Positions 22,328 to 38,865 of a stretch of DNA of 64,000 bases are shown piece after piece. How positions within the stretch are numbered: position 1 is the stretch's first letter; each line of letters begins with the position of its first letter. The notes under the pieces were generated by a model. The model was not told the DNA's origin. It did not search any database and saw only the letters and a program-made list of their open reading frames with translations. The position numbers and the translations under genes were made by a program. Source of the stretch: Euzebya sp. (GTDB lineage: Bacteria > Actinomycetota > Nitriliruptoria > Euzebyales > Euzebyaceae); NCBI GenBank assembly GCA_051004735.1, contig JBPCKA010000013.1:1099-65098 (forward strand), written 5' to 3'.

Positions 22328-22344
22328 TTAGAATGCCATTCTGC
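22328..22344. promoter_or_regulatory. IclR-box-like inverted repeat TTAGAATGCCATTCTGC (core AGAAT-N3-ATTCT at 22330-22342) upstream of the SBP gene
   Basis: Seen in sequence; one of four near-identical palindromes in this window (see 27803, 37890, 38791). Confidence 0.55.
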
Positions 22345-22355
22345 TAGCTCACGGC

Positions 22356-24254
22356 TCAAGCGAGCGGATCGGCACCGCTAAGCCAGTCGGCATCGGAGCG
22401 TGGTATCGAGGCGACCAGTCGCTCGGTGTAGGGATGGGATGGGTTGTCCAGCACCTGATCAATGGGGCCTGACTCCACCACCTCGCCCTGATACAGGACA
22501 TAGATCCGTTCTACGACCTGACGGACGACGGCAAGGTCATGGGTGATGAATAGGTAGGCGACCCCCAGGTCCTGACGCAGTTCCTTGAACAGATTGAGGA
22601 TCTGTGCCTGCACCGACACGTCCAGTGCTGACACCGGTTCATCGCACACGATCAATCGCGGTCGAACGGCCAGCGCACGAGCGATTGCGACCCGTTGTCG
22701 CTCGCCGCCCGACAAGGCAATCGGTTTGCGAGTGGCGTAGCTGGCTGACAGTCCGACGCGCTCTAGCAGCTCGCCCACGTGCGATGAGGAGGATTCATGG
22801 CGACCGCGTCCGACCTGCAGTGCTTGTTTCAGGGTGAATCCCACCGTCCGGGCCGGATTCAATGACGAGTAGGGGTCCTGAAAGATGATCTGCACTGTGC
22901 GACGCAGTCGCGTGCGGTCCGTGGTGTCGAGCGCCAGGTAGTCAACCGCGGAGATGCCGGCGATGTCGATCTGACCACTGTTGGGCGTTTCCAGCCCCAC
23001 CAGGCACCGTCCGAGCGTGGTCTTACCCGATCCGGACTCACCGACCAGGCCGACCCCCTCGCCCTCACCCACCGTCAGGTTCACGTCCTTCAGCGCCTGC
23101 ACCTCGCGCACCGCAGCTTTGCCGGCCCCTGCCTGATAGATCTTGTTCAGGTCTCGAACCTGCACCAGTTGCTGATCATCTGGTGGCGCGATGATCTTTA
23201 CTGGCTGTTCGGAGACGTGTCGTAGACCAGCCATCTCCGGGCGGATGTCGTCCAGCCGCACGCAGTTGGTGAAACGCCCTGGCTCGACTTCCTGCAGGGG
23301 TGGTGAGCCATCGTGGCACGCCTTCGCAGCCCAGGTGCAACGCGGAGCGAATGCGCAGCACGTCGCGACCGAATCCGGGTCAGGCACCGAGCCCTTGATA
23401 CCGGCCAGCACGGGGACACGGCGGTCCCCGGGGGGCTCGGACAGCAGCAGCCCCAGGGTGTAGGGGTGCAATGGTTCAGCTTCAAGGGCGGTCGCCGACG
23501 CGATCTCCAGCAACGACCCCGCATACAGGACATAGACCCGGTCACACATCGAGAACGCCACCCGCAGATCGTGGGTGATCAACACCAGGCCCATACCCCG
23601 CTTCGCCTGCAGGGACTTCAACAAGATGAGGATGTCCCGCTGGGTCGTCACATCCACCGCCGTCGTTGGCTCATCGGCGATCAGAATCGCGGGATCACGC
23701 GCCAGGCTCGCCGCAATTCCGACCCGTTGGCGCATCCCCCCCGAGAGTTGGAAAGGGAAGCGGACCGCAACCCGGGGGTCGCTGATGCCCACCTCATTCA
23801 ACCGCTCCAGTGCCTGGGCGTGGTGCCCTCCACTCACGCGCTGGCCAGACCGATCTGCTCGAAGACCCTCCTCCAGATGGATACCGCAGCGCAGCAGTGG
23901 GTTGAGCATGGTGTAGGGGTCTTGCAGCACCAGGCCGATCTCGCCACCACGGACCTGTCGAAGCCGTCGCTCAGGCAGATCAAGCAGGTTGTCCTTGCCG
24001 TACTGGACCACCCCTGTGGCCGACAGCCCCGCGGGCAGCAACCCCAGCAGAGCACGTGCCGTCATGGACTTTCCGCTACCTGATTCACCGACGATCCCGA
24101 TTGTCTCACCGGTTCCCAAGGTCAGATCGACATCGCGCACGATTGTCCGACGACGTCCCCCCAACCGGCTGGTGATGGACAGACCCCGCACTTTCAGCAG
24201 CGCCGGATCCGAGACTGAATTGACCTGTTCCCGCACGGCTTGCCCCACGATCAT
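22356..24254 (-). CDS. ABC transporter ATP-binding protein with two fused ATPase domains (DppD-DppF fusion type)
   Basis: Two complete sets of Walker A (GESGSGKSM / GESGSGKTT), signature ([15 protein letters not shown] / LSGGERQRVAIARAL) and Walker B motifs in one 632-aa ORF. Confidence 0.85.
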   Translation of the reverse strand: MIVGQAVREQVNSVSDPALLKVRGLSITSRLGGRRRTIVRDVDLTLGTGETIGIVGESGSGKSMTARALLGLLPAGLSATGVVQYGKDNLLDLPERRLRQVRGGEIGLVLQDPYTMLNPLLRCGIHLEEGLRADRSGQRVSGGHHAQALERLNEVGISDPRVAVRFPFQLSGGMRQRVGIAASLARDPAILIADEPTTAVDVTTQRDILILLKSLQAKRGMGLVLITHDLRVAFSMCDRVYVLYAGSLLEIASATALEAEPLHPYTLGLLLSEPPGDRRVPVLAGIKGSVPDPDSVATCCAFAPRCTWAAKACHDGSPPLQEVEPGRFTNCVRLDDIRPEMAGLRHVSEQPVKIIAPPDDQQLVQVRDLNKIYQAGAGKAAVREVQALKDVNLTVGEGEGVGLVGESGSGKTTLGRCLVGLETPNSGQIDIAGISAVDYLALDTTDRTRLRRTVQIIFQDPYSSLNPARTVGFTLKQALQVGRGRHESSSSHVGELLERVGLSASYATRKPIALSGGERQRVAIARALAVRPRLIVCDEPVSALDVSVQAQILNLFKELRQDLGVAYLFITHDLAVVRQVVERIYVLYQGEVVESGPIDQVLDNPSHPYTERLVASIPRSDADWLSGADPLA

Positions 24255-25117
24255 CGGGCCCGACCCCGGTCACTCAGGCGCTCTTCCAACCAATCGCCCA
24301 GCAGGTTCATGCTGGCAGCCGTCAACACGATCATCACGCCAGGCGCAAGCGCGGCTGCGGCGTTCGTGAACAGCAACGTGCGACTTTCGGCCAGCATCCG
24401 ACCCCAGTCAGCGGTTCCCGGCCCCACACCCAGCCCCAGGAACGACAACGCAGACAAGGCCAGCAAGCCGTAGGCGAAGCCCAGAAAGGCACTCGCCAAC
24501 ACCAGCGGAGTCAGATTCGGCCAGATGTGCTGCAGCGCGACACGGCGACTGGATAGTCCCAGGACTCGCGCCGCCTCGACATAGGCACGTGGGCGTTGCT
24601 CCAGGGTTGCGGCTCGGATCAACCGCGTGTCATAGGGGGAACTGAGCAGAATCAGCACCGCAACGGCACGCCAGTACCCACCGCCCAACACACCGACGAC
24701 CACGATCGCCACCAGATGTCCTGGTAGGGCGAACATCAGGTCAGCCCAGCGCAGGACCACCATGTCGATCCGTCCCCCGCGGTAGCCGGCCAGCAGCCCC
24801 AACGCTCCGCCGAGGACCGTGGCGCCCAGGGTGATCAGGGCCGGGCCGACGATCGCCGTGCGGGTCCCGACGATCACCCGGGACAACACGTCGCGGCCAA
24901 GATCATCGGTGCCCAGCCAGTGTGCCCAACTAGGGCTGCTCACTCCCGTGGCCAGATCCTGGGCAGACGGGCCCTGGGGTGCGACTGTCGGGCCGAAGAC
25001 CGCCAGGATGATGACCGTCACGACGAACAGAAAGCACAACGCGATGAGGATCGGAAACCTGGTACGCCATCGTGCCGGCTCCCGCACACCGGCCGCAGCG
25101 ATGGTGACCTCACTCAT
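24251..25117 (-). CDS. ABC transporter permease (DppC-like)
   Basis: Permease with conserved N-terminal HWLGTDDLGRDVLSRV motif and EAA loop. Confidence 0.8.
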   Translation of the reverse strand: MSEVTIAAAGVREPARWRTRFPILIALCFLFVVTVIILAVFGPTVAPQGPSAQDLATGVSSPSWAHWLGTDDLGRDVLSRVIVGTRTAIVGPALITLGATVLGGALGLLAGYRGGRIDMVVLRWADLMFALPGHLVAIVVVGVLGGGYWRAVAVLILLSSPYDTRLIRAATLEQRPRAYVEAARVLGLSSRRVALQHIWPNLTPLVLASAFLGFAYGLLALSALSFLGLGVGPGTADWGRMLAESRTLLFTNAAAALAPGVMIVLTAASMNLLGDWLEERLSDRGRAR

Positions 25118-26082
25118 CCGCCGACCCGACTGAAGCGAATCCGTGGATCGATGAAGAGGTACAACACATCAGTCAGCAGATTCACCGCGATGACCACGGT
25201 CGCGGTCAGCATCGCCAGGCCCTGGACCACCGCCACATCCTGAAACGTCACCGAGTCGATCAGCAATGACCCCAGGCCTGGCAGGGCGAAGGTCACCTCG
25301 ACCAGAACCGCGCCGCTGAGCATGACACCCAGAATCAAGCCGCTGGCAGTGACCACGGGAATCAGGGCATTCCGCAATCCGTAGGTGACCAGCAGCCGCC
25401 GAGGGGACAACCCCCTGGCGCGTCCGAAGACCATGTAGTCCTGGTCCAACGCGGCAATCATTCCGGTTCGGGTGAACTTCAGAACAGGAGCCACCCCGGT
25501 CAACGCCAGAGCCAGCGCCGGTAACGTCAGATGCCACAACTGATCGGGGAAGCTCCGCCCCTGTCCGAACGCCGGAAACCAGCCCAGGACCACGGCGAAC
25601 ACATACAACAGGAACACCCCGGTGGCGAACGCAGGGGCGCTGACCCCGATGACGCTGAAGGTCACCGCCGCGCGGTCGACCGCGGAGCGCTTCTTGGTGG
25701 CCGCCAGAACTCCCAGAGGTACCCCGACAGTCATGATGATGACAAAGGCGTAACCGCCCAGCAGCAGGGTCAACCCCATCCGGTCCCGCAGAGCCTGGAC
25801 CACCGGTTCCGTGGTCCGTGTCGACGTGCCGAAATCCAGCCTGCTGGCATCGGCTACCCAGTAGCCGTACTGACTCAGGAATGATTCGTCCAGGTGGTAG
25901 CGCGCCCGTATGGCCTCAACGACTTCGGGGTCCATTGGCCGCGTGCTCCCGATCAGCACCTGTTCGGGAGTTCCGGGGGCAACGAACTGCAGTGAGAAGA
26001 TCCCAAAGGAGATGATCGCCAGCAGCACGACCATGCCTACCAGTCGCTTGGCCACGAAGGTGAGCGTGCGTCGAGCGTCCAC
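25114..26082 (-). CDS. ABC transporter permease (DppB-like)
   Basis: Permease; EAA loop FGRARGLSPRRLLVTYGLRN. Confidence 0.8.
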   Translation of the reverse strand: MDARRTLTFVAKRLVGMVVLLAIISFGIFSLQFVAPGTPEQVLIGSTRPMDPEVVEAIRARYHLDESFLSQYGYWVADASRLDFGTSTRTTEPVVQALRDRMGLTLLLGGYAFVIIMTVGVPLGVLAATKKRSAVDRAAVTFSVIGVSAPAFATGVFLLYVFAVVLGWFPAFGQGRSFPDQLWHLTLPALALALTGVAPVLKFTRTGMIAALDQDYMVFGRARGLSPRRLLVTYGLRNALIPVVTASGLILGVMLSGAVLVEVTFALPGLGSLLIDSVTFQDVAVVQGLAMLTATVVIAVNLLTDVLYLFIDPRIRFSRVGG

Positions 26083-26085
26083 GGT

Positions 26086-27771
26086 CTAGGAGACCGGGCG
26101 GACGTCAGATACCCAGATGCCCTTCTTGAAGAACAGCACACTCAACCCGACGAACTCGTAGTTGTCGCTGATCGCCATCGCGATGTCTTCCCACCACAGC
26201 GGGAGATAGGGGAGGTCTTCGGAGATGATCTGCATCACCTCCGCGATCGCGGCAGCCCGCTCCTCCACGTCGGTGGTCAACCCCTGCTCGTCGATCAGCT
26301 CATCCACCCGGGGGTTGATGTAGTTCGGAATGTTGAAGCCACTGGGACGGGCGAACTCACTGGGCAGCATGTAGCTGATGTAGTCGGCCGGATCCAGCAA
26401 CTCCGGAGTGAAGCTGAGCGCTCTGAAGCCGATGTTCTGATGTCCCACGACATCGGCTATCTCCTCCCCCAGCGGCACCTCCTCGACCGTGAGGTCAACG
26501 CCGATCTGGCTCAGATTCTCACGCAGGTTGAGCGCGGCCCTGCCCAGCTCCGGTTTGGCATCGGCATACTTCAGGGTGGCCGAGAACCCGTCGGGAAAGG
26601 CGGACTGGGCAAGCTCCTCACGCGCGAGATCCAGGTCGAACTCGTAGGGCCGCAAGGATGCATAGATCTCCTCCACGCGCTCGCTGGGGATATCCAGACC
26701 ATCCCACTGCCCGCGGGGCACAAGCGATGTCGCGGCTTCTCCGTACCCGGAGAGCAGTCCGTCGACCAGGCCTTCTCGATCCAACGCATGGGCCACGGCG
26801 CGACGAACGTGGACGTCGCCCCACAACTCGTCCTCCAGATCCCAGGCGAAGAAGGCGGGTAGCAGCCCCGGCGCGGACTCCACCCGCAGTCCATCGATAC
26901 TCTCCCAACCGCCCGCTTCACTGACCGGGATGAACATGAACCCGTCCGCTTCCTGGGCACGCATGGCCAACTGCGCGGTCTGGGAGTCCGCGATGTATTG
27001 GATTGCAACCTCACGGAATCGGGGGGTGTCCCCCCAGTAATTGTCGTTTCGGACGAGTTCAACAACCTCGTCCGCGCGGAAGTCAGTCAGAACGTAGGGG
27101 CCGGTGCCGATGAGGGTGTCATCACCCGGTGTGCCAAGACGCTCACCGACCTGTTCACCGAACGCCCGGCTGACAATGGGAGCATAGGACGGCACGTACT
27201 GCCAGAAGGCCGCCGGCCGCGTGAGTGTCACCGTCAACTCGTTGTCCCCCGTGACCTCCATGGTGTCCACGTCCACGAACGCAGAGTTCAGGGACGACTC
27301 GACCTCAGGGTCGCGGTGGCGTTCCCACGAATAGATCACATCCTCCACCGTGAGAGGGCTGCCATCAGAAAACATGACATCCGAGCGGATCCGGTAGACA
27401 TAGGTTTGCGGATCAATCTCTTCCCACGACTCAGCCAACCATTCGGTCATCAGCAAGTCCTCATCAAGGGTCAGCAGACTCTCGGTGACCAGCCCCTGAG
27501 CAGCCTTGGACCCTTGATCCAATGCCTTGGCGGCATCCAGACTGACCAAAGAGTTGACGATCCAGGTCAGGCGGTCCACATCGCCACCACCGGATTGCTC
27601 GGAACTGCCGGGTGCCGGCTCGCTGGTGGACTCATCAGGGCTGGCCGCACCCTCACATGCCGCCAGGAGCATCGGAGTTGAGATGGCAGCGCCGGCAAGG
27701 CCAAGACGCTTCAACAACTGCCGCCTGCTCAGTGACTGGCTTGGGGTTCCTGGGGTGATTCGACCTTGCAT
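26086..27771 (-). CDS. ABC transporter substrate-binding protein, family 5, Tat-like signal plus lipobox
   Basis: ORF 26086..27912. Start at MQGRITPGTPSQSLSRRQLLKRLGLAGAAISTPMLLAAC (27771). Confidence 0.75.
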   Translation of the reverse strand: MQGRITPGTPSQSLSRRQLLKRLGLAGAAISTPMLLAACEGAASPDESTSEPAPGSSEQSGGGDVDRLTWIVNSLVSLDAAKALDQGSKAAQGLVTESLLTLDEDLLMTEWLAESWEEIDPQTYVYRIRSDVMFSDGSPLTVEDVIYSWERHRDPEVESSLNSAFVDVDTMEVTGDNELTVTLTRPAAFWQYVPSYAPIVSRAFGEQVGERLGTPGDDTLIGTGPYVLTDFRADEVVELVRNDNYWGDTPRFREVAIQYIADSQTAQLAMRAQEADGFMFIPVSEAGGWESIDGLRVESAPGLLPAFFAWDLEDELWGDVHVRRAVAHALDREGLVDGLLSGYGEAATSLVPRGQWDGLDIPSERVEEIYASLRPYEFDLDLAREELAQSAFPDGFSATLKYADAKPELGRAALNLRENLSQIGVDLTVEEVPLGEEIADVVGHQNIGFRALSFTPELLDPADYISYMLPSEFARPSGFNIPNYINPRVDELIDEQGLTTDVEERAAAIAEVMQIISEDLPYLPLWWEDIAMAISDNYEFVGLSVLFFKKGIWVSDVRPVS

Positions 27772-27800
27772 AGCAGCTCCAGTGGGAATCGGATGCGTCG

Positions 27801-27817
27801 ATAGAATACCATTCTGC
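27801..27817. promoter_or_regulatory. IclR-box-like inverted repeat ATAGAATACCATTCTGC (core 27803-27815) in the divergent promoter region between SBP gene and DMFase-like gene
   Basis: Seen in sequence; 5-3-5 palindrome AGAAT-ACC-ATTCT. Confidence 0.55.
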
Positions 27818-27880
27818 TGACAGGCGCAAGGACTTTGGCTCCGCGTCTCGACATCTGCATCCAGCTTTGGGAGTACGCCA

Positions 27881-30094
27881 GTGCCTGACGACGAAACCAC
27901 CCCTACGCACAACCCGGCCGAGCTCTCGCAGCCCTCACCGTGGGATCTGACGTTGGTCGGTTACGCAGACCCCTGGAGCGTTGCTCCGCAAGAGACCGTG
28001 CGTTTCATGGTCAGCAGTTCCCATTCGACCTATCAGGCCCAGATCGTCAGGTTGCTCCATGGCGATGATCGGCTCGAGGCGCCTGGTGTGAAGGAAGAGG
28101 TGGTTCCCACTCAGGTGGACGGGGAGTATGCGGGCCGACAGCTTTCCTATCCCACCGGTTCTGCGGTCATCGTGCCTGATCACCCCTCCCTGCGCCTGAC
28201 CGACAGTTTCACCCTGACCGCATGGATCTACCCGACGACCCCAGACAAGGGCCTTCAAGGCCTGCTGACAAAATGGTCACCGCATGATCAGGTGGGCTAT
28301 GCCTTGATGATCAATGCCCAAGGGCAACTCGAATTGTGGCTGGGCGCAGAAGGCCAGGAACCAGCCCGCTTCGCCAGCGGCGCAGGCCTGCGTAAACACC
28401 AGTGGTACTTCGTCGCGGCCACGTATGACCCTCACGCAGGGTCGGTACAGGTGTCACAGATCCCCTTCCCCTTCTATCCCAACGACACGACCGATGTCCA
28501 TCGCGAGCATCCTGTGGCTGCGGGGACCTGTGGATCTGCGAGCACACCGTTGGTGATGGCGGCCCTGAGCCAGACAATCAACCACTACAACGGAAAGATC
28601 GAGGCGCCGACCATCTACGGTGAGGTGTTGTCCCACGAAGCGTTGCTTGCCGTCGCGGGTCGAACACCCCTCGCCGGCACTACAGGATCGATCGTTGCTG
28701 CCTGGGATTTTGCTCTTGATACGCCCACCGACCAAATCCGCGACGTATCAGGCAGCAACCTGCACGGACGCACAATCAACCTGCCTGCCAGGGGCTCAAG
28801 CAGCCATCTGTTCCATGGTGGCGAGGGCTCCTGGGCCGTGGCGCCCGAAACTCACGCAGCCCTGCACTTTCACGAGGACGATCTTGAGGACTGCAGGTGG
28901 GATGTTGCGTTCGAACTGGCACTACCCGATGACCTGCCCAGCGGGGTCTATGCCGCGAAGCTGAGCGCAGGCAGCAGCCGGTATCACATTCCGTTCGTGG
29001 TGCGTCCTCCCAACCGACGCGCCACCGCACCCGTGCTGGTGCTGCTACCAACCAATTCCTACCTTGCTTACGCCAACTTTCGTGAGGAGTTCGCCGAGCG
29101 GCACGGCGTCCTTGGTCTGTACCACGATCATGGTGACGGCAGCGCAGTGTTGTACTCCTCAGCCCGAAGGCCGATCGTCAACTTCCGTCCGGGATCCAAT
29201 TTCGACATTCTGGGTGAGGCTGGAGCGCCACACCAGTTCAACGCCGATCTGTACCTGATCGACTGGTTGACGGCCAAAGAGATCGACTTTGATGTTGCCA
29301 TAGATCACGACCTGCAGACAGAAGGTGCCGACCTGTTGGGGCAGTACCGCGTCGTCATCACAGGAACACACCCCGAGTACTGGTCTGGGACAATGCTTGA
29401 TGGGCTTGAGGCCTACCTCGCCGGGGGTGGCCGTCTGATGTATCTGGGCGGCAACGGATTGATCTGGACCACGACCTTCGATCCCCACCGACCCCATGTG
29501 ATCGAACTGCGGCGCGGCGGCGGCGGCGTCCGCAACGCCAGCCCCGGAGAGCGCTATCACACCACCACGGGAGAGCTGGGTGGGCCGTGGCGAGCGCGTG
29601 GCCGTCCCCCGAATCTGCTGCTGGGCGTCGGCTCCATCGGCCAGGGCTTTGATCGCTCCTGTGGCTACCGCCGGACGCCGGAAAGCTTTGATCCCCGCTC
29701 GTCATGGATCTTCGACGGTGTCGGTGAGGACGAACCAATCGGAGAGTTCGGCCTGACCATGGGTGGCGCCGCCGGTTTTGAGGTCGATTGCGCAGACCGC
29801 TTCTTCGGCACTCCACCGCACGCCCTGGTGGTGGCCTCGGCAACGGAGTTCTCCGATACCTACGAGCACCAGCACCCAGTCCACATAGCTGGGACCGACG
29901 TCGACCTTCATGAACCCCTGCGCAGCGACATGGTGTTCTTCGAAGGCCCGAATGGGGGGGCAGTGTTCTCCGTAGGCTCGATCGCCTACTGCGGGTCCTT
30001 GTCACATAACGACTACGACAACAACGTCTCACGGATAACCCACAACGTCCTGCGACGCTTCGCCTCCGACCAGTCGACTGACCAACGTGACTGA
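27881..30094 (+). CDS. N,N-dimethylformamidase large (beta) subunit-like protein (DmfA2 homolog family)
   Basis: 737 aa, GTG start with GGGAG RBS. Collinear with the DMFase large-subunit family: N-terminal jelly-roll segment then a C-terminal catalytic-type region. No small-subunit gene nearby. The 3' end overlaps the next gene by 8 nt. Confidence 0.65.
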   Translation: MPDDETTPTHNPAELSQPSPWDLTLVGYADPWSVAPQETVRFMVSSSHSTYQAQIVRLLHGDDRLEAPGVKEEVVPTQVDGEYAGRQLSYPTGSAVIVPDHPSLRLTDSFTLTAWIYPTTPDKGLQGLLTKWSPHDQVGYALMINAQGQLELWLGAEGQEPARFASGAGLRKHQWYFVAATYDPHAGSVQVSQIPFPFYPNDTTDVHREHPVAAGTCGSASTPLVMAALSQTINHYNGKIEAPTIYGEVLSHEALLAVAGRTPLAGTTGSIVAAWDFALDTPTDQIRDVSGSNLHGRTINLPARGSSSHLFHGGEGSWAVAPETHAALHFHEDDLEDCRWDVAFELALPDDLPSGVYAAKLSAGSSRYHIPFVVRPPNRRATAPVLVLLPTNSYLAYANFREEFAERHGVLGLYHDHGDGSAVLYSSARRPIVNFRPGSNFDILGEAGAPHQFNADLYLIDWLTAKEIDFDVAIDHDLQTEGADLLGQYRVVITGTHPEYWSGTMLDGLEAYLAGGGRLMYLGGNGLIWTTTFDPHRPHVIELRRGGGGVRNASPGERYHTTTGELGGPWRARGRPPNLLLGVGSIGQGFDRSCGYRRTPESFDPRSSWIFDGVGEDEPIGEFGLTMGGAAGFEVDCADRFFGTPPHALVVASATEFSDTYEHQHPVHIAGTDVDLHEPLRSDMVFFEGPNGGAVFSVGSIAYCGSLSHNDYDNNVSRITHNVLRRFASDQSTDQRD

Positions 30095-30557
30095 TGCTGT
30101 CAACATCGCCCTGCAGGTCAACGGCCAGCAGTGTGACCTGATGATCGATATCCGAGCCACGCTGTTGGATGTACTGCGTGAACAGCTGATGTTGACCGGC
30201 GCCAAGGAAGCCTGTAACAGAGGCGAGTGCGGCACCTGCACCGTGTTGGTGGATGGCAGGAGGGTGTATTCCTGCATGGCTTTGGCCGTCATGCACGCTG
30301 GCGCGGCGGTCACCACCATCGAGGGTGTGACGCAGGACGAGACCGCCAGTCAGTTGCAACAGGCCTTCCTGCGGCACGACGCGCTGCAGTGTGGCTATTG
30401 CACCCCTGGCCAGATCCTGTCTGCCATGGGATTGCTGAGCGAGGGTCGGACCGGATCCCGCACCGAGATCCGGGAGTTCATGAGCGGCAACCTGTGCCGC
30501 TGTGGTGCGTATCCCCAGATCGTTGACGCGATCCGCGATGTGATCGGCGAGCCCTAG
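30087..30557 (+). CDS. [2Fe-2S]-binding small subunit of XDH/CO-dehydrogenase-family molybdenum hydroxylase (CoxS-like)
   Basis: CNRGECGTCTV and CGYCTPG...CRCGAY cluster motifs. Confidence 0.9.
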   Translation: MTDAVNIALQVNGQQCDLMIDIRATLLDVLREQLMLTGAKEACNRGECGTCTVLVDGRRVYSCMALAVMHAGAAVTTIEGVTQDETASQLQQAFLRHDALQCGYCTPGQILSAMGLLSEGRTGSRTEIREFMSGNLCRCGAYPQIVDAIRDVIGEP

Positions 30558-30559
30558 CG

Positions 30560-31540
30560 ATGCAAACATTCGCCTATCTCCGACCGTCTGACGCTGCCGC
30601 TGCAATTACTGGGCACCAGGGTGATCACAGCGCCTGTTTCATCGCGGGGGGCACGGATGTCCTGGGGCTATTGAAGGACGGGGTCATCGCGCCTGACGTA
30701 CTGGTGGATCTGAACGATCTTCCGCTGCAGGGCATCGAGGCTGGCACGTTGGGAGTGGTGATCGGTGCTCTGGCCCGACTGGCCGACGTGGCTGTTCATC
30801 CCGACATCAGGCGAGGCTTCCCTGTCCTCAGCCAGGCGATCATGGCCGCCGCATCGCCGCAACTCCGCAACATGGCCACTCTCGGCGGCAATCTGCTCCA
30901 ACGGACACGGTGCGGCTACTTCCGCGATCCGGTGATGCCCTGCAACAAGCGGGAAACCGGCAGCGGCTGTTCCGCGATTTCGGGAGCCAGTCGGTCACAC
31001 GCCGTCTTCGGCACCAGTCTGGACTGTGTCGCCGTTCACCCCTCTGACCCGGCTGTGGCGTTGCTGGCCCTGGACGCGGTGATCCGAACCGACGGCCCGC
31101 ATGGCCCCCGAGGCATCCCGATCGTGGACCTGCACCAGTTGCCAGGTCAAACTCCCGGCCGGGAAACCGTTCTGGAGCCAGGTGAGATCATTGTGGCCAT
31201 CGAGGTGCCCGCTACTCCCCTCGCGCGGCGCTCGTGCTATGTCAAGGTGGCAGACCGGGCTTCGTTCGACTTCGCACTGGTCGCTGCCGCCGTTGCGATG
31301 GATCTCCGGGACGGAATCGTCAGAACCGTCCGCGTGGCCCTGGGTGGTGTGGCCCCGATCCCGTGGCGCGCAGTCCCCGTCGAGGACGCGCTGTCTGGCC
31401 AGCCACTGAACCGGGCGACGATTGAGGCTGCGGCCCATGCCATGACGATTCATGCCCAACCACTGCGGGACAACGCGTTCAAGGTCAACCTCTTACCTCA
31501 CGTGATCCGCCGAGCCCTGATGACCGTCGAGGGACTGTAG
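30560..31540 (+). CDS. FAD-binding medium subunit of molybdenum hydroxylase (CoxM/XdhB-like)
   Basis: AGGTDVLGLLK and NMATLGGNL FAD-binding motifs. Confidence 0.85.
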   Translation: MQTFAYLRPSDAAAAITGHQGDHSACFIAGGTDVLGLLKDGVIAPDVLVDLNDLPLQGIEAGTLGVVIGALARLADVAVHPDIRRGFPVLSQAIMAAASPQLRNMATLGGNLLQRTRCGYFRDPVMPCNKRETGSGCSAISGASRSHAVFGTSLDCVAVHPSDPAVALLALDAVIRTDGPHGPRGIPIVDLHQLPGQTPGRETVLEPGEIIVAIEVPATPLARRSCYVKVADRASFDFALVAAAVAMDLRDGIVRTVRVALGGVAPIPWRAVPVEDALSGQPLNRATIEAAAHAMTIHAQPLRDNAFKVNLLPHVIRRALMTVEGL

Positions 31541-33684
31541 TGCGGCGCGAATCGGTGGGCCCTTCTGCCACCCGAGTTGACGGTCAGGTGAAGGTCAGCG
31601 GCGCGGCAACATACACCACTGACGTCGTCCTGCCGCAGCAGGTACATGCCGTCGTCGTGCAGGCCACCGTGGCGACGGGGCGCATCCGGCACATCGAGTT
31701 GGCGGCGTCGCTGGCAGCTCCGGGGGTCCTTGGCGTCCTCACTCACCACAACACCCCAGCGCTTGAGGAAGTGGCCACCTTCCCGCAGGGACCCGCAGGT
31801 CAGCGGATGGCTCCGCTTCAAAGCGATGTCGTGTACTTCGACGGTCAACCTGTCGCCGTCGTCATCGCTGAAACCAGGCTGCAGGCTGTCCATGCCGCAG
31901 AACTGGTCCAAGTGGACATTCAGCCCGGATCGCATGCGCCGTCACTGTGGACCGACCGTCCCGGCGCTGCACCGCTCAGCATCTTCGGGGAATCTCCGGA
32001 CTCTGTGCGTGGCAACCCCGACGCCGCACTGGCTGCGGCGGAGGTCCGCCTAGAGCGGCGGTACAGCACGCCGACCGAGCATCATCATCCACTTGAACCT
32101 GGTGCCACCGTTGCCTGTTGGGACGGCGACTCCCTGACGGTCTATGACAGCACCCAATGGATCTTCGGTGTGCGTGAAGCGCTGTGTGTGACATTGGGAT
32201 TGTCCCAGGATCGCGTACGGGTGCAGTCCCCCTTCGTCGGGGGCGCGTTCGGGAGCAAGGGCATGGTATGGCCCCACGTCGTCTTGACGGTTCTGGCCGC
32301 ACGCCATGTTGGTCGGCCCGTGAAGTTGACGCTTGACCGCGGGCAGATGTTCACCCTGCTGGGGTACCGCTCGCCGACGATCCAGCGCCTGTCCCTGGGG
32401 GCGACAGCGTCGGGAACCTTGACCGCGCTCGTCCACGACACCACCCAGCAGACCTCAATGTTTCAGGAGTTCGCCGCTGGTGTCGGCTTCATGTCGCGCA
32501 GCCTCTACGTCTGTCCGAACGTCGCAGTGCGCCACCGTGTGCTTCCCATCAATGCGCCGACCCCAACGGTCATGCGTGCGCCTGGCGAGGCCGTCGGGAG
32601 CTTCGCGCTGGAGACCGCCATGGATGAGCTGGCGGTCACGCTGTCCGTCGATCCGATCCAACTTCGGCTTCGCAACCATGCTGAAATCGATCCCCATTCC
32701 GGCATGCCGTGGTCCAGCAACGCGTTACGCGAGTGCTATCTGCTGGGCGCTGACCGCTTCGGATGGGACGCCCGCAGCGCAGCACCCGGATCGATGCGAG
32801 ATGGCCATCTTCAACTTGGGTGGGGCGTGGCATCGGCGACATATGCGGTGAACAGTGAACCGGCAAACGCTTGGGTGCGTCTGCGCGCTGACGGAACGGC
32901 AACGGTCGCCTGCGGTACCCAGGATCTGGGAACCGGGACCTACACGACCATGGCCCAGATCGCTGCCGAGGCGCTGGGACTACCTGTGGATCATGTCTCA
33001 GCGGAGTTGGGCGACACCGAATTGCCTCGGGCACCCCATTCAGGCGGGTCACAAACCGCCGCCAGCGTGCTTCCCGCAGTGTGGTCGGCCGCCCAGTCTG
33101 TGATCGCCCAACTGAACTCACTGGCTCAGATGTCAGCAGCCAGGGAAAGCCCCAACGCCATCCTCCGGCGCCACGGCCTGGCGCAGATCGAGGGACGCAG
33201 CAGCACCCCGTCCCCCGGTGCCGCCAACCGCTTTGCCATGCAGTCCTTCGGCGCCCAGTTTGCCGAGGTCGCGGTGGATCCCGATCTAGCCCAGGTGAGG
33301 GTGACCCGCTTTGTGGGTGTCTTCGGCGCGGGCCGCATCGTCAACCAGACCACGGCCCGCAGCCAGATGATCGGTGGAATCGTCGGCGGAATCGGCATGG
33401 CACTGCTGGAGCGCACGGTGACCGATCCGCGCTCCGGGCGGGTGGTCTCCCCAAACCTCAGCGCGTACCTGGTTCCCACACAGGCAGACATCCCCGCGAT
33501 CGACGTCAGCTTTGTCGAGGAGGTTGATCCCCACGTCAACTCCCTTGGGATCAAAGGTGTTGCGGAACTCGGAATAGTGGGCGTGGCGGCCGCGATTGGC
33601 AATGCGATCTTCCACGCCACCGGCCGGCGGATCAGGGACCTACCGATCACCTGCGACACGTTGTTGGGTGCGACACACGGCTGA
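31540..33684 (+). CDS. Molybdopterin-binding large subunit of XDH-family molybdenum hydroxylase (aldehyde oxidase/CoxL-like)
   Basis: 714 aa; GTG start overlapping the previous stop by 1 nt; GSKG, VRAPGE, GTQDLGTGT, GAGRIVN and GVAELG segments typical of the Mo-cofactor subunit. Confidence 0.85.
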   Translation: MRRESVGPSATRVDGQVKVSGAATYTTDVVLPQQVHAVVVQATVATGRIRHIELAASLAAPGVLGVLTHHNTPALEEVATFPQGPAGQRMAPLQSDVVYFDGQPVAVVIAETRLQAVHAAELVQVDIQPGSHAPSLWTDRPGAAPLSIFGESPDSVRGNPDAALAAAEVRLERRYSTPTEHHHPLEPGATVACWDGDSLTVYDSTQWIFGVREALCVTLGLSQDRVRVQSPFVGGAFGSKGMVWPHVVLTVLAARHVGRPVKLTLDRGQMFTLLGYRSPTIQRLSLGATASGTLTALVHDTTQQTSMFQEFAAGVGFMSRSLYVCPNVAVRHRVLPINAPTPTVMRAPGEAVGSFALETAMDELAVTLSVDPIQLRLRNHAEIDPHSGMPWSSNALRECYLLGADRFGWDARSAAPGSMRDGHLQLGWGVASATYAVNSEPANAWVRLRADGTATVACGTQDLGTGTYTTMAQIAAEALGLPVDHVSAELGDTELPRAPHSGGSQTAASVLPAVWSAAQSVIAQLNSLAQMSAARESPNAILRRHGLAQIEGRSSTPSPGAANRFAMQSFGAQFAEVAVDPDLAQVRVTRFVGVFGAGRIVNQTTARSQMIGGIVGGIGMALLERTVTDPRSGRVVSPNLSAYLVPTQADIPAIDVSFVEEVDPHVNSLGIKGVAELGIVGVAAAIGNAIFHATGRRIRDLPITCDTLLGATHG

Positions 33685-33690
33685 TGCGGA

Positions 33691-35376
33691 TCAGGGCACC
33701 GTGGTCGCCCCGGTGCTGGCCGAACCGACCAGCGAGGCGTACTTGGCGAACACGCCCGAGGGGTAGCGGGATGTCGGGGGTTCCCAGTCCTTGAGCCGCG
33801 AGGCAACGTCGACGTCCAACACCTCGATGGTGCGACTGGCCACGTCGATCCTGATCATGTCCCCATCCTCAAGGGCGGCCAGTGGACCGCCGACCGCAGC
33901 CTCAGGCGCCACATGTCCGATCATGAACCCGTTGGTCGCGCCACTGAAGCGCCCATCGGTGATTAGGGCCACTGAATCTCCCAGGCCCTCGCCCAAGATG
34001 GCCCCCGTGACCGAGAGCATCTCGCGCATCCCCGGTCCTCCCCGCGGTCCCTCATAGCGGATGACCACAACGTCGCCAGGTGCAATCCGTCCCTCGATGA
34101 CCGCGGCATACCCATCCTCCTCGCAGTCAAAGATCCGCGCGGGGCCGGTGTGGGAGGTCAAGGTGTGCGCGGTGATCTTCACCACCGATCCCTGTGGTGC
34201 CAGGTTGCCGCTGAGCACGACCAGGCCACCCTCTGAGCGAAGTGGCCGGTCCAGGGGCAGCACGACCTGCTGACCCTCGGTTTCGACGACGTCCTGAACC
34301 TCCTCGCCCAGACTTCGGCCGGTGACGGTCAGCGCTGAGCCGTCGATGTACCCACCGTCGATCAGTCGGCTGGTCAGCAGGGCAATGCCGCCGGCGCGGT
34401 GCAGGTCGACGGCGGCGAAACGTCCGCCCGGCAACAGGTCGCACAGCAGTGGCGTCCGTCTGCTGGTGCGATCGATGTCCTCCAGGGTCAGATCCACGCC
34501 AACCTCCTTGGCCAGTGCCAGCAGGTGGAGAACGGCATTGGTCGACCCGCCACTTGCCGCCACCGCCGCCACGGCGTTGTCAAAGGCAGCACGAGTCAAG
34601 ATCTGACGGGGGCGGATATCTCGCGCCAACACATCCATGATCAGGGCACCGGCCCGCTCGGCTGCCTGGCCCTTGGTCTGGTCCACCGCGGGGATGGAGT
34701 TGAAACCCACCGGCGACAGCCCGATGGTCTCCATCACCATCGACATCGTGTTCGCGGTGAACTGTCCGCCGCAGGCTCCCGCACCCGGGCAGGCGACCCG
34801 CTCCATCTCGTGAAGGTCCTCCTCGTCAAGCAGACCAGCCGCAACCGCTCCGATTGCCTCAAACACCTCGCCCATTGCCAGATCACGGCCGCGGAATCGA
34901 CCGGGCATGATCGAACCGCTGTACAACACCATTCCGGGTCGGTCCAACCTGGCCAAGGCCATCGCCGCAGCCGGAACGGTCTTGTCACACGCAACGATGC
35001 AGACCATGGCGTCGAACATGTGTCCTCGACCGACCAGTTCGATCGAGTCGGCGATCAGCTCTCGACTGACCAGCGACGCCTTCATCCCCTCGGTGCCCAT
35101 CGTGACCCCATCGGAGATCGCAATGGTATTGAACTCCATCGGGGTGCCCTCAGCCTGCCGCACACCTGCCTTGACCCGTTCCGCCAGGCTGCGATGGTTC
35201 AGGTTGCAGGGCATGGTCTCGATCCATGCATGTGACACGCCCACGATGGGCCGCTGCAGATCCTCCGGTGAGAACCCTGTGCCGTACAGGTAGGCCCTGG
35301 CCGCGGCGCGCGAACGCCCCTCATACATGACGCGACTGGGCAGCTGCGCCATGTTGATCTGGGGAGATGCGCTCAT
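33691..35376 (-). CDS. IlvD/EDD-family dehydratase (dihydroxy-acid / sugar-acid dehydratase)
   Basis: ORF 33691..35685. Start at MSASPQINMAQLPSRVMYEGRSRAAARAYLYGTGF (35376). CPGAGACGG Fe-S cluster motif and C-terminal ITDGRFSGATNGFMIGHVAPEA signature. Confidence 0.85.
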   Translation of the reverse strand: MSASPQINMAQLPSRVMYEGRSRAAARAYLYGTGFSPEDLQRPIVGVSHAWIETMPCNLNHRSLAERVKAGVRQAEGTPMEFNTIAISDGVTMGTEGMKASLVSRELIADSIELVGRGHMFDAMVCIVACDKTVPAAAMALARLDRPGMVLYSGSIMPGRFRGRDLAMGEVFEAIGAVAAGLLDEEDLHEMERVACPGAGACGGQFTANTMSMVMETIGLSPVGFNSIPAVDQTKGQAAERAGALIMDVLARDIRPRQILTRAAFDNAVAAVAASGGSTNAVLHLLALAKEVGVDLTLEDIDRTSRRTPLLCDLLPGGRFAAVDLHRAGGIALLTSRLIDGGYIDGSALTVTGRSLGEEVQDVVETEGQQVVLPLDRPLRSEGGLVVLSGNLAPQGSVVKITAHTLTSHTGPARIFDCEEDGYAAVIEGRIAPGDVVVIRYEGPRGGPGMREMLSVTGAILGEGLGDSVALITDGRFSGATNGFMIGHVAPEAAVGGPLAALEDGDMIRIDVASRTIEVLDVDVASRLKDWEPPTSRYPSGVFAKYASLVGSASTGATTVP

Positions 35377-35413
35377 AATCGTCTGTCCTTCTGTTGACCC
35401 TGATTGGGCACTG

Positions 35414-36181
35414 CTAATAGATGCGGGCGAGCAGGCCGCCATCCACCACGATGTCGATGCCGCTGAGATATGAGGCATCGTCGGAGGCGAGGAACAACGC
35501 GACGTTGGCGACGTCGCGGGCAGAGGCAAAGCGGCGTAGCGGGTACCGCTCGGTGACCTGGGCTCGGGCGACCTCAGGATCTGGTTGAAAAGCAAAGAAC
35601 TGTTCCACCATCGGCGTGTCCACATCGCCCGGACAGATGGTGTTGCAGCGGATGTTTTCTGGGCCGTGGGCCGTGGCGACCGCACGGCACATCGCGCGCA
35701 ACCCGCCCTTCATGGCGCCGTAGGCCGCCATGTCCGGATCGCCCACGATGCCAAGCAGCGAAGCGGTGATGATGATCGACCCTCCACCGCGCGCCCGCAG
35801 GTGCGGCATCGCCTGCTGGATGCCCAGGTACACACCACGCAGGTTGGTTGCGTGCATCGCGTCCCAGTCATCCTGCGGGGTGTCCTCCAACAGTCCCATT
35901 GCCTGGACCGCAGCGTTGGCGAACAGCACGTCGAGTCCGCCGAAGTGATCCACGCAATCGTTGATCACCTGGGCGTTGCCCTGGCTGGTGGAAATGTCGG
36001 CGACCACTGCACGTGCCTTTCCCCCTGCATCGACGATGGTCTGGACCGTGGCCCTCGCACCGACTTCATCGATGTCGGCACACACCACCTGTGCGCCTTC
36101 CTCGGCGAACCTGATCGACGCCGCGCGACCGATACCCCGTCCGGCACCTGTCACCACCGCAGCCTTGCCGGACAGTCTCAC
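35414..36181 (-). CDS. SDR-family oxidoreductase
   Basis: TGAGRGIGRA Rossmann motif, NAA, YGAMKGG catalytic Tyr-x3-Lys. Confidence 0.85.
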   Translation of the reverse strand: MRLSGKAAVVTGAGRGIGRAASIRFAEEGAQVVCADIDEVGARATVQTIVDAGGKARAVVADISTSQGNAQVINDCVDHFGGLDVLFANAAVQAMGLLEDTPQDDWDAMHATNLRGVYLGIQQAMPHLRARGGGSIIITASLLGIVGDPDMAAYGAMKGGLRAMCRAVATAHGPENIRCNTICPGDVDTPMVEQFFAFQPDPEVARAQVTERYPLRRFASARDVANVALFLASDDASYLSGIDIVVDGGLLARIY

Positions 36182-37512
36182 TGGACCGCCCGTAGGTCAT
36201 GCCGGTCGTGGGCCGACGCCAACTCAGTGTTCTTCTCGGGCTCCGCCACCACGGTCGCGGCTGCCGCAGCGACCGCCTCACGGGTCTGGTCAAGATCATC
36301 CTGGGTGTGTGCTGCCGACACGTACAGCAGACCGCGTGAGATCACGTTAACCCCGTGGTCCAGCAGTGCCTCGGCGAACCGTGCATAGGTAGTGGTGTCG
36401 GTATCCAACGTGTCAGCCTGTGTGTCCACGGGCTGGGAGCTGCAGAAGGCGTGAGCCATGCCCCCCAACTGGTTGACGACAAGCGGTAAACCGGCGGCGC
36501 CACATTCCTGACGTAACAGTTGGGCCAACGCATCGCCCATGGCATCAAGTCTGGGATAGATCTCATCCCCATGATCTTCCAGTTCACTGATCGCCGCCAG
36601 CGCGGCGCTGGCACACACCGGGTTGGCGTTGAAGGTGCCCACGTGCTTGACCCGCCCTGCCACGACCTCATCCATCACATCGCGGCGACCTGCCACCGCA
36701 CTGATCGGGAAGCCGGCCCCCAAGGCCTTGCCCAGCACGACCAGGTCAGGTACCACCCCGAATCGTTCCTGTGCCCCGCCCAGTGCCAGTCGGAAGCCGG
36801 TGATCACCTCATCAAAGACCAACAACGCACCCGCTTCTGTGATCAGTTCTTGCGCCGCCTGCAGATAGCCTGGGTCGGGAAACAGACAACCGCCGTTGAC
36901 CGCTAGCGGTTCCATGATCACGGCCGCGACGTCATCGCTCAGCGCCCCGCGAAGCGCACCAAGGTCATTCCAGGTACACATCGTGACCGCTGATGACGCC
37001 TGAGGATCCTGACCACCGGTGGAGGGAAGCGCAGCGGCCATGCCAGGAATTCCAATGGCCAGGGGATCCAACCAGCCGTGGAAGTGGCCCAGGAACTTGA
37101 TCACCCTGCGGCGACCTGTTGCTGCCCGCGCAATCCGCAGTGCAGCGTGAACTGCTTCGCTCCCACTGTTTGAGAACACGCAAAGGTCAGCGCACGGCAC
37201 CGTTCGGCACACCGCCTCGGCAAGTTCGGCCTCCAACGGATGACAGGCGCCGTAGCCAATCCCTGTTGACAGTTGCTTCTCAACCGCTCTGGTCACCCGC
37301 AGTGGGGAATGTCCCAGCAGCATCGGGCCGAACGCCAGGGCGTAGTCGATGTAGGTATTGCCGTCGACATCGCTCAGGTGGGCGTCCTTGCCCCCGACCA
37401 TGGTGATCGGAACAGGTCGTTGTGGAGCGCGGTATGCCGTTGCGACGCCGCCGGCCAGGCTGCGGCGGGCACGGTCCTGCTGCTCACGCGAACGTGCGTA
37501 GCGATCAGTCAT
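36178..37512 (-). CDS. Class-III (aspartate aminotransferase superfamily) PLP-dependent aminotransferase / aminomutase
   Basis: SGSEAV...DEVITGFR...LGKALGAGFP (PLP-Lys) signature of omega-aminotransferase/GSA-aminomutase family. Confidence 0.8.
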   Translation of the reverse strand: MTDRYARSREQQDRARRSLAGGVATAYRAPQRPVPITMVGGKDAHLSDVDGNTYIDYALAFGPMLLGHSPLRVTRAVEKQLSTGIGYGACHPLEAELAEAVCRTVPCADLCVFSNSGSEAVHAALRIARAATGRRRVIKFLGHFHGWLDPLAIGIPGMAAALPSTGGQDPQASSAVTMCTWNDLGALRGALSDDVAAVIMEPLAVNGGCLFPDPGYLQAAQELITEAGALLVFDEVITGFRLALGGAQERFGVVPDLVVLGKALGAGFPISAVAGRRDVMDEVVAGRVKHVGTFNANPVCASAALAAISELEDHGDEIYPRLDAMGDALAQLLRQECGAAGLPLVVNQLGGMAHAFCSSQPVDTQADTLDTDTTTYARFAEALLDHGVNVISRGLLYVSAAHTQDDLDQTREAVAAAAATVVAEPEKNTELASAHDRHDLRAVQ

Positions 37513-37877
37513 CCAGCAGTCCCGACAGCACCCGGGTCGAAGTAGGCCCTGACGCTGGTGAACTTGCCGTCACGGACCTGCACCACATTGACCCCGCGGA
37601 ACGCGTGACGACCACCGTCATGGTCAGTCAGGACCGCCTCCCACTCAAGGCAGGCCTGGTCGCCGTCGCTGACCTCGTGAACGATGTCAACTTCCAACCC
37701 GGGATAGTCCCGGATCTCATCGGCGTAAAAGGTGGCAATCTCCTCGTGTCCACGCAACGCCTCGCCCGAGGGTGGAAAGACCACTGCATCGGTATGGTAA
37801 TAGCCCAGCACAGCCGATAGATCCCGCCGGCACTCTGCCGCCCAGTAGGCCTCCGCTACCTCGCGAGGTGATGTCAT
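37509..37877 (-). CDS. SnoaL-like / NTF2-family small protein (ketosteroid-isomerase fold)
   Basis: 122 aa; AEAYWAAECRRDLSAVLGYYHTDAV...YFDPG is the SnoaL/NTF2 pattern; first gene of a four-gene operon with 4-nt overlaps. Confidence 0.65.
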   Translation of the reverse strand: MTSPREVAEAYWAAECRRDLSAVLGYYHTDAVVFPPSGEALRGHEEIATFYADEIRDYPGLEVDIVHEVSDGDQACLEWEAVLTDHDGGRHAFRGVNVVQVRDGKFTSVRAYFDPGAVGTAG

Positions 37878-37887
37878 AGGTGGTTCA

Positions 37888-37904
37888 GCAGAATACTATT
37901 CTGC
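37888..37904. promoter_or_regulatory. Perfect 17-bp inverted repeat GCAGAATACTATTCTGC between the SnoaL operon start (37877) and the iclR start (37959)
   Basis: Seen in sequence; the 8-1-8 palindrome is the best copy of the four AGAAT-N3-ATTCT sites. Confidence 0.65.
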
Positions 37905-37958
37905 GGATGACTGCGCAAGATGTCGTTATCTGGACGGCAGCCATCAGGACAGCGTGTG

Positions 37959-38774: not shown

Positions 38775-38788
38775 CTCCGTCCCGCATG

Positions 38789-38805
38789 ACAGAATCAGAT
38801 TCTGG
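38789..38805. promoter_or_regulatory. Inverted repeat ACAGAATCAGATTCTGG (core 38791-38803) downstream of iclR and upstream of the MBL/gentisate operon
   Basis: Seen in sequence; 7-3-7 palindrome CAGAAT-CAG-ATTCTG. Confidence 0.55.
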
Positions 38806-38865
38806 TAGCGGCGAAGCTGGTGCGCACGGCCTTGTTCGGGCCGCTCGGGGAGCTGAGGAGTTGTA

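Follow-up and report, generated by a model that had tools for sequence, protein, structure and literature searches.

The stretch analysed here (hereafter the window) is 64 kb of chromosomal DNA from a Euzebya sp. metagenome-assembled genome (MAG), in which four closely packed genes on the forward strand lie near the housekeeping genes dnaX, recR, asd, ask and queA. The first encodes a homologue of the large subunit of N,N-dimethylformamidase (DMFase), and the other three encode the iron-sulphur (FeS), FAD and molybdopterin subunits of a molybdenum (Mo) enzyme. The open reading frames (ORFs) are as follows, with lengths in amino acids (aa).

27881-30094, + strand: amidase of the DMFase large-subunit family (ORF 1), GTG start, 737 aa
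30087-30557, + strand: [2Fe-2S] subunit, PaoA-like (ORF 2), GTG start, 156 aa
30560-31540, + strand: FAD subunit, PaoB-like (ORF 3), ATG start, 326 aa
31540-33684, + strand: molybdopterin (Mo) subunit of PaoC/aldehyde-oxidase type (ORF 4), GTG start, 714 aa

Read directly from the sequence, ORF 2 begins with the GTG at 30087 and so shares 8 nt with the end of the amidase gene (TGA at 30092-30094); this GTG is the sole in-frame start that preserves the conserved N-terminus of the FeS subunit. The FeS gene ends with TAG at 30555-30557 and is followed, after a 2-nt gap, by the ATG of the FAD gene at 30560, whose own TAG (31538-31540) shares 1 nt with the GTG of the Mo gene at 31540. In the NCBI annotation the Mo gene begins 5 codons further in (P0121, 709 aa); its TGA (33682-33684) and the stop codon of an ilvD-like gene that converges on it are 6 nt apart. 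An earlier annotation of this DNA (the original prediction) had described a single tightly packed operon with these 8-nt and 1-nt overlaps, and that description stands, except that the gap it gave as 3 nt measures 2 nt. There is no terminator-like site on the + strand within 27881-33684, and a scan of 27500-34200 for sigma-70 promoters and terminators returned counts no higher than chance. The arrangement predicts that the four genes form one operon. An antisense ORF of 415 aa (29358-30605, - strand) crosses the junction between the amidase and FeS genes; it is Arg/Pro-rich and looks like an artefact of high GC content.

A Logan assembly of the same region from a public run (L137; L-numbers denote the comparison loci that we collected) is 100% identical to the window across 21881-34758, so the junctions are not the artefact of a single assembler. 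We therefore rejected an assembly chimera at the amidase/FeS junction, with the limit that both assemblies may well derive from the same reads, which leaves a library artefact possible. GC content is uniform across the window.

The amidase and the molybdenum enzyme

ORF 1 shows a LamG-like domain architecture of Laminin_G_3 and DMFA2_C in Pfam, the latter at 296 bits against a cutoff of 27. Its best PDB relatives are the Paracoccus DMFase large subunit (6lvb, E 1e-136) and an acylase (8i5a, E 2e-111), and Foldseek places its AlphaFold (AF2) model (pLDDT 92.5, pTM 0.91) at TM 0.91 to 6lvd/6lvb and 0.86-0.88 to 8huy. In DMFase, Y399, Y440 and E521 are the Fe(III) ligands, and H519 and N547 are essential or active-site residues (PMC7686228). 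These align in turn with Y397, Y414, E499, H497 and N525 of ORF 1, all five of which are invariant in an alignment of 84 homologues; Y397, Y414 and E499 are the predicted Fe(III) ligands, H497 and N525 the predicted catalytic residues. ORF 1 is accordingly named here as a predicted DMFase-family mononuclear-iron amidohydrolase with the full set of catalytic residues. The assignment made in the original prediction thus holds: Pfam, PDB and fold comparisons agree with the intact active site, the family is not an unrelated one, and the two Tyr and one Glu that it proposed to look for are conserved. DMFase Phe693, which narrows the pocket and restricts that enzyme to small amides (PMC7686228), aligns with Val in ORF 1, in a loop whose alignment is uncertain.

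The original prediction also noted that no DMFase small subunit is encoded beside ORF 1. We searched for one using DmfA1 from plasmid pAMI2 of P. aminophilus, by tblastn and then with a two-round profile built from 20 small-subunit ORFs, against all six-frame ORFs of at least 40 aa in the window and 85 loci. The profile matched directly upstream of the large-subunit gene in 19 of 84 homologue loci (E<=1e-26), and no further match appeared among the searched loci at E<=10. Neither the six-frame translation of the whole 64 kb window nor nine close orthologue loci (L001-L005, L081-L084) gave a match even at E<=10, and a hidden small subunit was rejected for the window. In a neighbour-joining tree the small-subunit-linked proteins, including P. 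aminophilus DmfA2, cluster apart from the clade of the window protein. In a published survey, 952 genomes had the large subunit and 41 the small one, and the acylase structures 8HUY, 8I59 and 8I5A contain a single kind of chain; absence of the small subunit is therefore normal for the family. ORF 1 is best placed, on these comparisons, in the branch to which most of the family belongs and which functions with no small subunit. The gene's absence was thus correctly predicted, but the statement that stand-alone homologues are uncharacterised was not: the structures just named are of a characterised N-acetyl-(R)-beta-phenylalanine acylase, and the stand-alone form is the norm. DMFase-family genes are duplicated, in tandem or nearby, in L007, L052, L060 and L076 (Binatia, Dehalococcoidia and Alphaproteobacteria), and in L060 and L076 a small-subunit gene precedes the first copy only.

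ORFs 2-4 carry, in order, Fer2/Fer2_2, FAD_binding_5 with CO_deh_flav_C, and Ald_Xan_dh_C with MoCoBD_1/2 domains in Pfam. The best NCBIfam model is PaoA for the FeS subunit (196 bits) and PaoC for the Mo subunit (585 bits, next XdhA at 341); all Pao scores lie under the equivalog cutoffs, so the Mo enzyme is a PaoABC relative and not an orthologue. PDB matches rank likewise, with 5y6q_C (E 1e-163), PaoC (E 5e-121) and CoxL (E 5e-55) for the Mo subunit, and 5y6q_B (E 4e-84) and PaoB (5g5g_B, E 6e-73) for the FAD subunit; structures of Cox, 4-hydroxybenzoyl-CoA reductase (HCR), Qor, N-heterocycle hydroxylases and XDH all rank far behind 5y6q and PaoABC. In the FAD subunit the four Cys of the motif RTRC...CNKR...GSGC...C all align with PaoB and 5y6q_B, and it is predicted to carry the [4Fe-4S]-binding four-Cys insertion. 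The catalytic Glu of the Mo subunit, E676 in GVAELG, aligns with Glu692 in the GVGELG of PaoC. Tyr435 stands where PaoC has Arg440, a position at which 5y6q also has Tyr. The FeS subunit (156 aa) aligns from PaoA model position 50 and the Tat signal region is absent, so the Mo enzyme would be cytoplasmic. Together ORFs 2-4 are predicted to encode an aldehyde oxidoreductase of PaoABC type, located in the cytoplasm and equipped with two [2Fe-2S] clusters, FAD together with a [4Fe-4S] cluster, and a catalytic Glu. The three-subunit composition given in the original prediction is upheld, and its generic XDH/CoxSML label gives way to the PaoABC/aldehyde-oxidase type by NCBIfam and PDB; with an enzyme of this type, oxidation of an aldehyde is likelier than the hydroxylation of an N-containing compound that had been proposed.

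Operator sites and conserved neighbourhoods

An operator-like palindrome, AGAAT-N3-ATTCT, lies between the amidase gene and a divergent substrate-binding protein (SBP) gene, and similar sites precede other genes around the operon. MBL below denotes a metallo-beta-lactamase-fold protein.

27803-27815: AGAATACCATTCT, between the SBP start at 27771 and the amidase start at 27881
22250: AGATTCAGATTCT, one mismatch, between the ATPase stop and the second SBP start at 22206
22330: AGAATGCCATTCT, exact, same gap (region 22250-22342)
37890-37902: AGAATACTATTCT, exact, between the SnoaL and IclR genes
38791-38803: AGAATCAGATTCT, exact, before the MBL-dioxygenase operon

With at most one mismatch the palindrome occurs five times in the window against 0.30 expected (maximum 2 in 100 shuffles), and the five sites fall in four promoter regions. 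The palindrome at 27803 in the original prediction is therefore real, and it recurs. The genes around these sites are, from Pfam unless stated:

22356-27771, - strand: Dpp/Opp-type ABC importer (importer A)
26086-27771, - strand: family-5 SBP of importer A, Tat-like signal and lipobox
25114-26082 and 24251-25117, - strand: two permeases of importer A
22356-24254, - strand: fused double ATPase of importer A
35414-36181, - strand: SDR
36178-37512, - strand: GSAM-like class-III aminotransferase (Pfam, NCBIfam, PDB)
37509-37877, - strand: SnoaL-like gene
37920-38774, + strand: IclR-family regulator (HTH_IclR and IclR_C)
38866-39846, + strand: MBL-fold protein
39803-41023, + strand: cupin salicylate/gentisate-type 1,2-dioxygenase
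40954-41856, + strand: FAA-family hydrolase
41838-42350, + strand: DinB_2/MDMPI-type isomerase

The IclR gene thus lies beside a dioxygenase, an FAA-family hydrolase and an isomerase with palindromes at the promoters, the arrangement of a GenR-like regulon. IclR-family operators typically have GAA/TTC half-sites, usually in the -20 to -80 range, and the C. glutamicum gentisate regulator GenR recognises ATTCC-N7(5)-GGAAT (PMC8222616). The half-sites here are of the GAA/TTC type, and site centres lie 38 and 72 nt from the two starts, inside that range.

The comparison loci contain the same motif against a background of 0.3 per 10 kb across 2.0 Mb of other loci. It stands upstream of the amidase operon, exact in L002, L084, L081/L082 and L135 (at position 914) and with one mismatch in L001 and L003; it occurs with one mismatch in the gap between the SnoaL and SBP genes of L004 and L005; and it lies between the SnoaL and FeS genes in L087, L088 and L138. 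Elsewhere, then, the amidase operon and the Mo operon each fill the same slot, divergent from SnoaL with the operator between, and only the window has both, joined into one. The shared operator and the shared SnoaL, IclR and dioxygenase neighbours point to one regulon with a common end pathway; that both modules belong to one conserved, repressor-type regulon of IclR type we hold, as part of the overall scheme set out below, at about an even chance. In L002 (5783-9915) and L084 (5705-9907), the closest long contigs, the operator is followed by genes for a DAO-family oxidase, an S9 peptidase and an MBL-fold protein, with the amidase last, and a second operator stands immediately before the MBL gene. 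One Limnocylindria MAG (GCA_038211425.1; L004 and L135) holds two paralogous clusters of the form SnoaL / SBP-permease-permease-amidase ... IclR-MBL-cupin.

Conservation of the amidase neighbourhood was examined at 80 loci from a scan of species-representative genomes and 6 from look-ups, with homologues 40-71% identical to ORF 1 and flanks of up to 10 kb per side where the contig permits. The 13 loci with close orthologues (>=60% identity) share with the window the Dpp-type importer, the SMP-30 lactonase, the six-hairpin, Cyclase-family and 436-aa hydrolase-like proteins, and also the MBL-fold protein, cupin dioxygenase, IclR, SnoaL, class-III aminotransferase and asparaginase II. Importer A, the diverging family-5 SBP importer of the original prediction, indeed shares a 109-bp intergenic promoter region with the amidase (starts at 27771 and 27881), and its orthologues (56-77% identity) adjoin the amidase in L001, L002, L083 and L084. 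Its SBP has an RR-containing signal (SRRQLLKR) and a lipobox-like LLAAC, which suggests a Tat-exported lipoprotein; in the PDB it has only distant matches of mixed kind (YliB/GsiB, NikA, AppA, AccA), and inference of a substrate from it was dropped for that reason. On the far side of importer A lies a second block on the - strand, assigned from Pfam, which is kept beside the amidase orthologues in L002, L003, L081, L083 and L084 and partly in L004 and L005.

9830-22206, - strand: second Dpp-type importer and hydrolase block
20485-22206, - strand: SBP of the second importer (start from the L137 gene call)
19430-20452 and 18504-19433, - strand: permeases
17489-18493 and 16473-17636, - strand: ATPases
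15132-16442, - strand: 436-aa alpha/beta-hydrolase-like protein
14149-15135, - strand: Cyclase-family protein
11747-14152, - strand: six-hairpin protein, 801 aa
10860-11789, - strand: SMP-30/lactonase
9830-10939, - strand: asparaginase II

The Mo genes have a conserved setting of their own. Six contigs with Mo orthologues at 60-66% identity (L088 and L089 hold the same Mo protein) show one layout as far as each contig extends: SDR, aminotransferase and SnoaL on one strand (L138; partly L087 and L088), and on the divergent strand FeS, FAD, Mo, IclR, dioxygenase, FAA-hydrolase and DinB/MDMPI isomerase. IclR orthologues of 61-63% identity immediately follow the Mo gene in L086-L089, L138 and L139, and others of 45-56% occur in the vicinity of the amidase in L003-L005 and L135. 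A Glyoxalase_3-family gene sits beside the dioxygenase core in L086 (6800-8925), L087 (7544-9605), L139 (6397-8641) and L136 (3444-4289); in L086 an M20 peptidase gene comes next, and the gene at that place in L087 and L139 is incomplete and carries no annotation. The M20 peptidase would supply the same lower pathway with a further amide hydrolase.

The two modules are not joined elsewhere. By tblastn the three Mo subunits gave no match in L001-L084 at E<=1e-3 and none in L135 and L136 at E<=1e-5, and the amidase was absent from about 50 loci with Mo-subunit homologues (40-66% identical). Conserved linkage was therefore rejected (0 of 86 other amidase loci with FeS, FAD or Mo genes, 0 of about 50 Mo loci with the amidase), and the join of amidase and Mo genes is specific to this lineage. 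The neighbourhood check proposed in the original prediction thus went against it, the linkage being seen in this genome only, although, as described above, ORF 1 did prove to belong to the DMFase family.

The genes at 35414-42350 have counterparts on the Mo contigs that are 50-75% identical to those of the window, and the Mo genes themselves are 57-70% identical. A foreign origin of the Mo genes by recent horizontal insertion was dropped on these grounds, GC being uniform and the neighbours as similar as the Mo genes; both observations favour internal rearrangement. Since their conserved neighbours are retained at 50-75% identity, the Mo genes would be long-standing members of this neighbourhood that have probably moved from the gap between SnoaL and IclR to the 3' end of the amidase gene.

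Several further features of the window concern the ring-cleavage genes and the surroundings. The SnoaL, aminotransferase and SDR genes are joined by 4-nt overlaps. The aminotransferase scores 358 bits on the HemL subfamily model (cutoff 398) and 283 bits on GntE; its relatives include GntE, D-phenylglycine aminotransferase and beta-transaminases (2yku and 4ao9 among the more distant PDB matches), and GSAM-like relatives act on amino-aldehydes and aldehydes. The dioxygenase scores 299 bits on the NCBIfam model for gentisate 1,2-dioxygenase (TIGR02272, cutoff 442) and 285 on that for 5-aminosalicylate dioxygenase (cutoff 650), and its best PDB match is 3nst/2phd (305 bits), which we take to be a broad-range salicylate 1,2-dioxygenase, ahead of two other gentisate dioxygenases (232 and 224 bits). 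The sub-cutoff scores and this best match suggest a salicylate-type acid, of uncertain substitution, as the ring substrate. The MBL-fold protein matches uncharacterised structures only, and substrate inference from it was dropped. The ilvD-like gene (33691 to ~35370, - strand) passes the dihydroxy-acid dehydratase cutoffs and is for that reason not assigned to the pathway. An ilvD-type dehydratase adjoins amidase clusters in three unrelated contigs (the window at 33691-35685 on the - strand, L083 18260-18999 and L136 1623-3341), and the window and L136 proteins are 76% identical; either the cluster is anchored beside ilvD or the gene is a pathway dehydratase.

Further away, an alpha-amylase catalytic domain is split between 2600-2941 and 2981-4249 (+ strand; profile positions 2-92 and 109-440), which may reflect a frameshift, a pseudogene or a sequencing error. 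Two proteins carry triple CWB2 cell-wall-binding repeats (6931-9207, - strand, 758 aa; 58194-62033, + strand, 1279 aa) and are probably surface-layer or wall-anchored, one of them with a weak beta-helix match.

A proposed pathway and its alternatives

We propose that the operon is a lineage-specific joining of two modules of one regulon, which would import an amide-containing aromatic compound and degrade it through ring cleavage of the salicylate/gentisate type, a scheme that we put at even chances of being right. The Dpp-type importers would take up an N-acyl or N-aroyl conjugate, the iron amidase would cleave its amide bond, and the GSAM-like aminotransferase would convert the primary amine so released to an aldehyde. 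This aldehyde, probably an aromatic one, would then be oxidised to the carboxylate by the Mo enzyme, and the cupin dioxygenase would open the ring of the resulting substituted salicylate or gentisate, leaving the isomerase and the FAA-family hydrolase to finish the pathway. Any particular substrate is named with much less confidence than the general scheme. A bolder version is tentative: the small-subunit-free branch of the family may hydrolyse an imported aromatic amide (an N-acyl hydroxybenzylamine, for instance, or else an N-aroyl conjugate), with the amine passing by way of the transaminase and the Mo enzyme into the salicylate/gentisate dioxygenase pathway. This would be the first natural role for the branch, and the amidase and Mo operons would be interchangeable upper-pathway cassettes in one regulatory slot.

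A number of observations weigh against the scheme. Amidase and Mo genes adjoin in a single case, so the steps that these enzymes catalyse need not be linked, and the amidase orthologues adjoin varied enzymes (DAO, S9 peptidase, GGT, amidase, alpha/beta hydrolase), which suggests a flexible role. The 585 bits of the Mo subunit compare with a PaoC equivalog cutoff of 1180, and Arg440, replaced here by Tyr435, is important at the substrate site of PaoC; with this replacement and the sub-cutoff score, the substrate range of the Mo enzyme may differ from that of PaoC. Pfam searches of the predicted proteins of the 64 kb window gave no XdhC/PaoD-type maturation gene, and the cluster shows no evident hydroxylase for converting a monohydroxybenzoate to gentisate. 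The amine-to-aldehyde step is inferred from the family membership of the aminotransferase only, and the IclR protein (37920-38774) is the candidate regulator acting at the palindrome on grounds of its proximity and of the half-site type.

The main rival explanation is a neutral rearrangement, in which two entry modules for different substrates have been fused without meaning beyond shared transcription. The 13 amidase-orthologue loci without Mo genes, the five or six Mo-orthologue contigs without the amidase and the wide differences among amidase partners between genomes all fit this; both modules nonetheless share the operator motif and the SnoaL, IclR and dioxygenase neighbours in different genomes, and the 8-nt overlap leaves no space for a separate promoter, so that we regard it as doubtful. 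We consider it unlikely that the operon is instead the self-contained two-step module of the original prediction, in which the amidase cuts an amide or formamide and the Mo enzyme directly hydroxylates the N-containing product or a heteroaromatic ring. Mo hydroxylases and amidases are combined in known pathways such as quinaldine and nicotinate catabolism, the amidase and FeS genes are translationally coupled, and Tyr435 speaks for a specificity other than that of PaoC. Against this, the Mo enzyme falls in the PaoABC/aldehyde-oxidase clade, both solved members of which are named aldehyde oxidoreductases, and the matches to N-heterocycle hydroxylases are much poorer (7dqx E 7e-48, Qor E 9e-37, nicotinate dehydrogenase E 6e-26). 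The pairing is also absent at all other loci examined, where the conserved partners of the Mo operon are the aminotransferase, the SDR and the ring-cleavage pathway, and not the amidase. What survives of the two-step proposal is a shared pathway, on different evidence (the same operator before separate amidase and Mo operons); the hydroxylation and the conserved pairing do not.

It is very improbable that this is a true N,N-dimethylformamide (DMF) or formamide degradation locus with the Mo enzyme oxidising the C1 product. DMFase is the best PDB match and all catalytic residues are kept, but the small subunit is missing and the Paracoccus large subunit alone is inactive (PMC7686228). The window protein moreover belongs to a clade apart from the small-subunit-linked enzymes, P. 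aminophilus DmfA2 among them, Val stands (in the uncertain loop alignment) at the position of Phe693, the cluster contains no methylamine or formate genes, and the homologue AceAB, for all its high identity, does not act on DMF.

To return to the proposed joining of two modules of one regulon, what is new is the context, with both enzymes under one conserved operator; the families are known and the pairing is a single-lineage event. The amidase-Mo fusion alone is a rearrangement of one lineage and no new kind of enzyme system. Known substrates of the DMFase family are limited to one solvent and one insecticide, both synthetic, and an N-acetyl beta-amino acid. Placing one small-subunit-free clade in an IclR-type regulon, with its operator, peptide-type importers and salicylate/gentisate-type end pathway, would leave aromatic amides as the class in which to look for a natural substrate. 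Likewise, a cytoplasmic PaoABC-type enzyme appears here among the regular components of a cluster for aromatic catabolism, while its E. coli counterpart is seen as a detoxifying enzyme of the periplasm.

Relation to known systems

A literature search turned up no known cluster joining gentisate genes, a Mo enzyme and an amidase, and each part of the locus is best compared with its own relatives. Paracoccus DMFase (DmfA1A2; PDB 6LVB/6LVC/6LVV) shares with ORF 1 the three-domain large subunit (TM 0.91, ~36-40% identity) and the two-Tyr-one-Glu iron site with essential His and Asn. It differs in being an alpha2beta2 enzyme, where the window has no small-subunit gene and its protein falls in another clade, in Phe693, which is apparently not conserved, and in context, which in the window is aromatic and peptide-like catabolism and not C1 metabolism. 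The N-acetyl-(R)-beta-phenylalanine acylase (8HUY/8I59/8I5A) is a single-polypeptide relative (E 2e-111, TM 0.86-0.88), a family member that hydrolyses an N-acyl amine without a small subunit; at ~35% identity to ORF 1 it does not reveal the substrate of the latter. The acetamiprid amidase AceAB of Pigmentiphaga sp. D-2 is likewise homologous to DMFase without sharing its substrate, but it has two subunits and acts on a xenobiotic. Since acetamiprid is hydrolysed by it and DMF is not, homology is no guide to the substrate in this family.

E. coli PaoABC (5G5G/5G5H) and the aldehyde oxidase of Methylobacillus sp. (5Y6Q) share with ORFs 2-4 the FeS-FAD-Mo order, the [4Fe-4S] Cys of the FAD subunit and the catalytic Glu, and the Mo subunit aligns with nearly full-length PaoC and with 5y6q_C over all but ~30 residues (query 532-562). 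Unlike PaoABC, the window enzyme has no Tat signal on its FeS subunit and no PaoD-like gene nearby, and Tyr replaces Arg440, which differs from PaoC and matches 5Y6Q. It also lies inside what we read as an aromatic catabolic regulon, while the E. coli operon is a stand-alone detoxification system. The GenR-genDFM system of C. glutamicum combines, as here, an IclR regulator, a gentisate-type dioxygenase, an FAA-family hydrolase and a mycothiol-type (DinB/MDMPI) isomerase, with inverted operator half-sites of the TTC/GAA type. The GenR operator, ATTCC-N7(5)-GGAAT, differs from AGAAT-N3-ATTCT in sequence and spacing; the window dioxygenase is nearest to 2PHD/3NST, a 3-hydroxybenzoate 6-hydroxylase is absent from the cluster, and the predicted regulon of the window is far larger.

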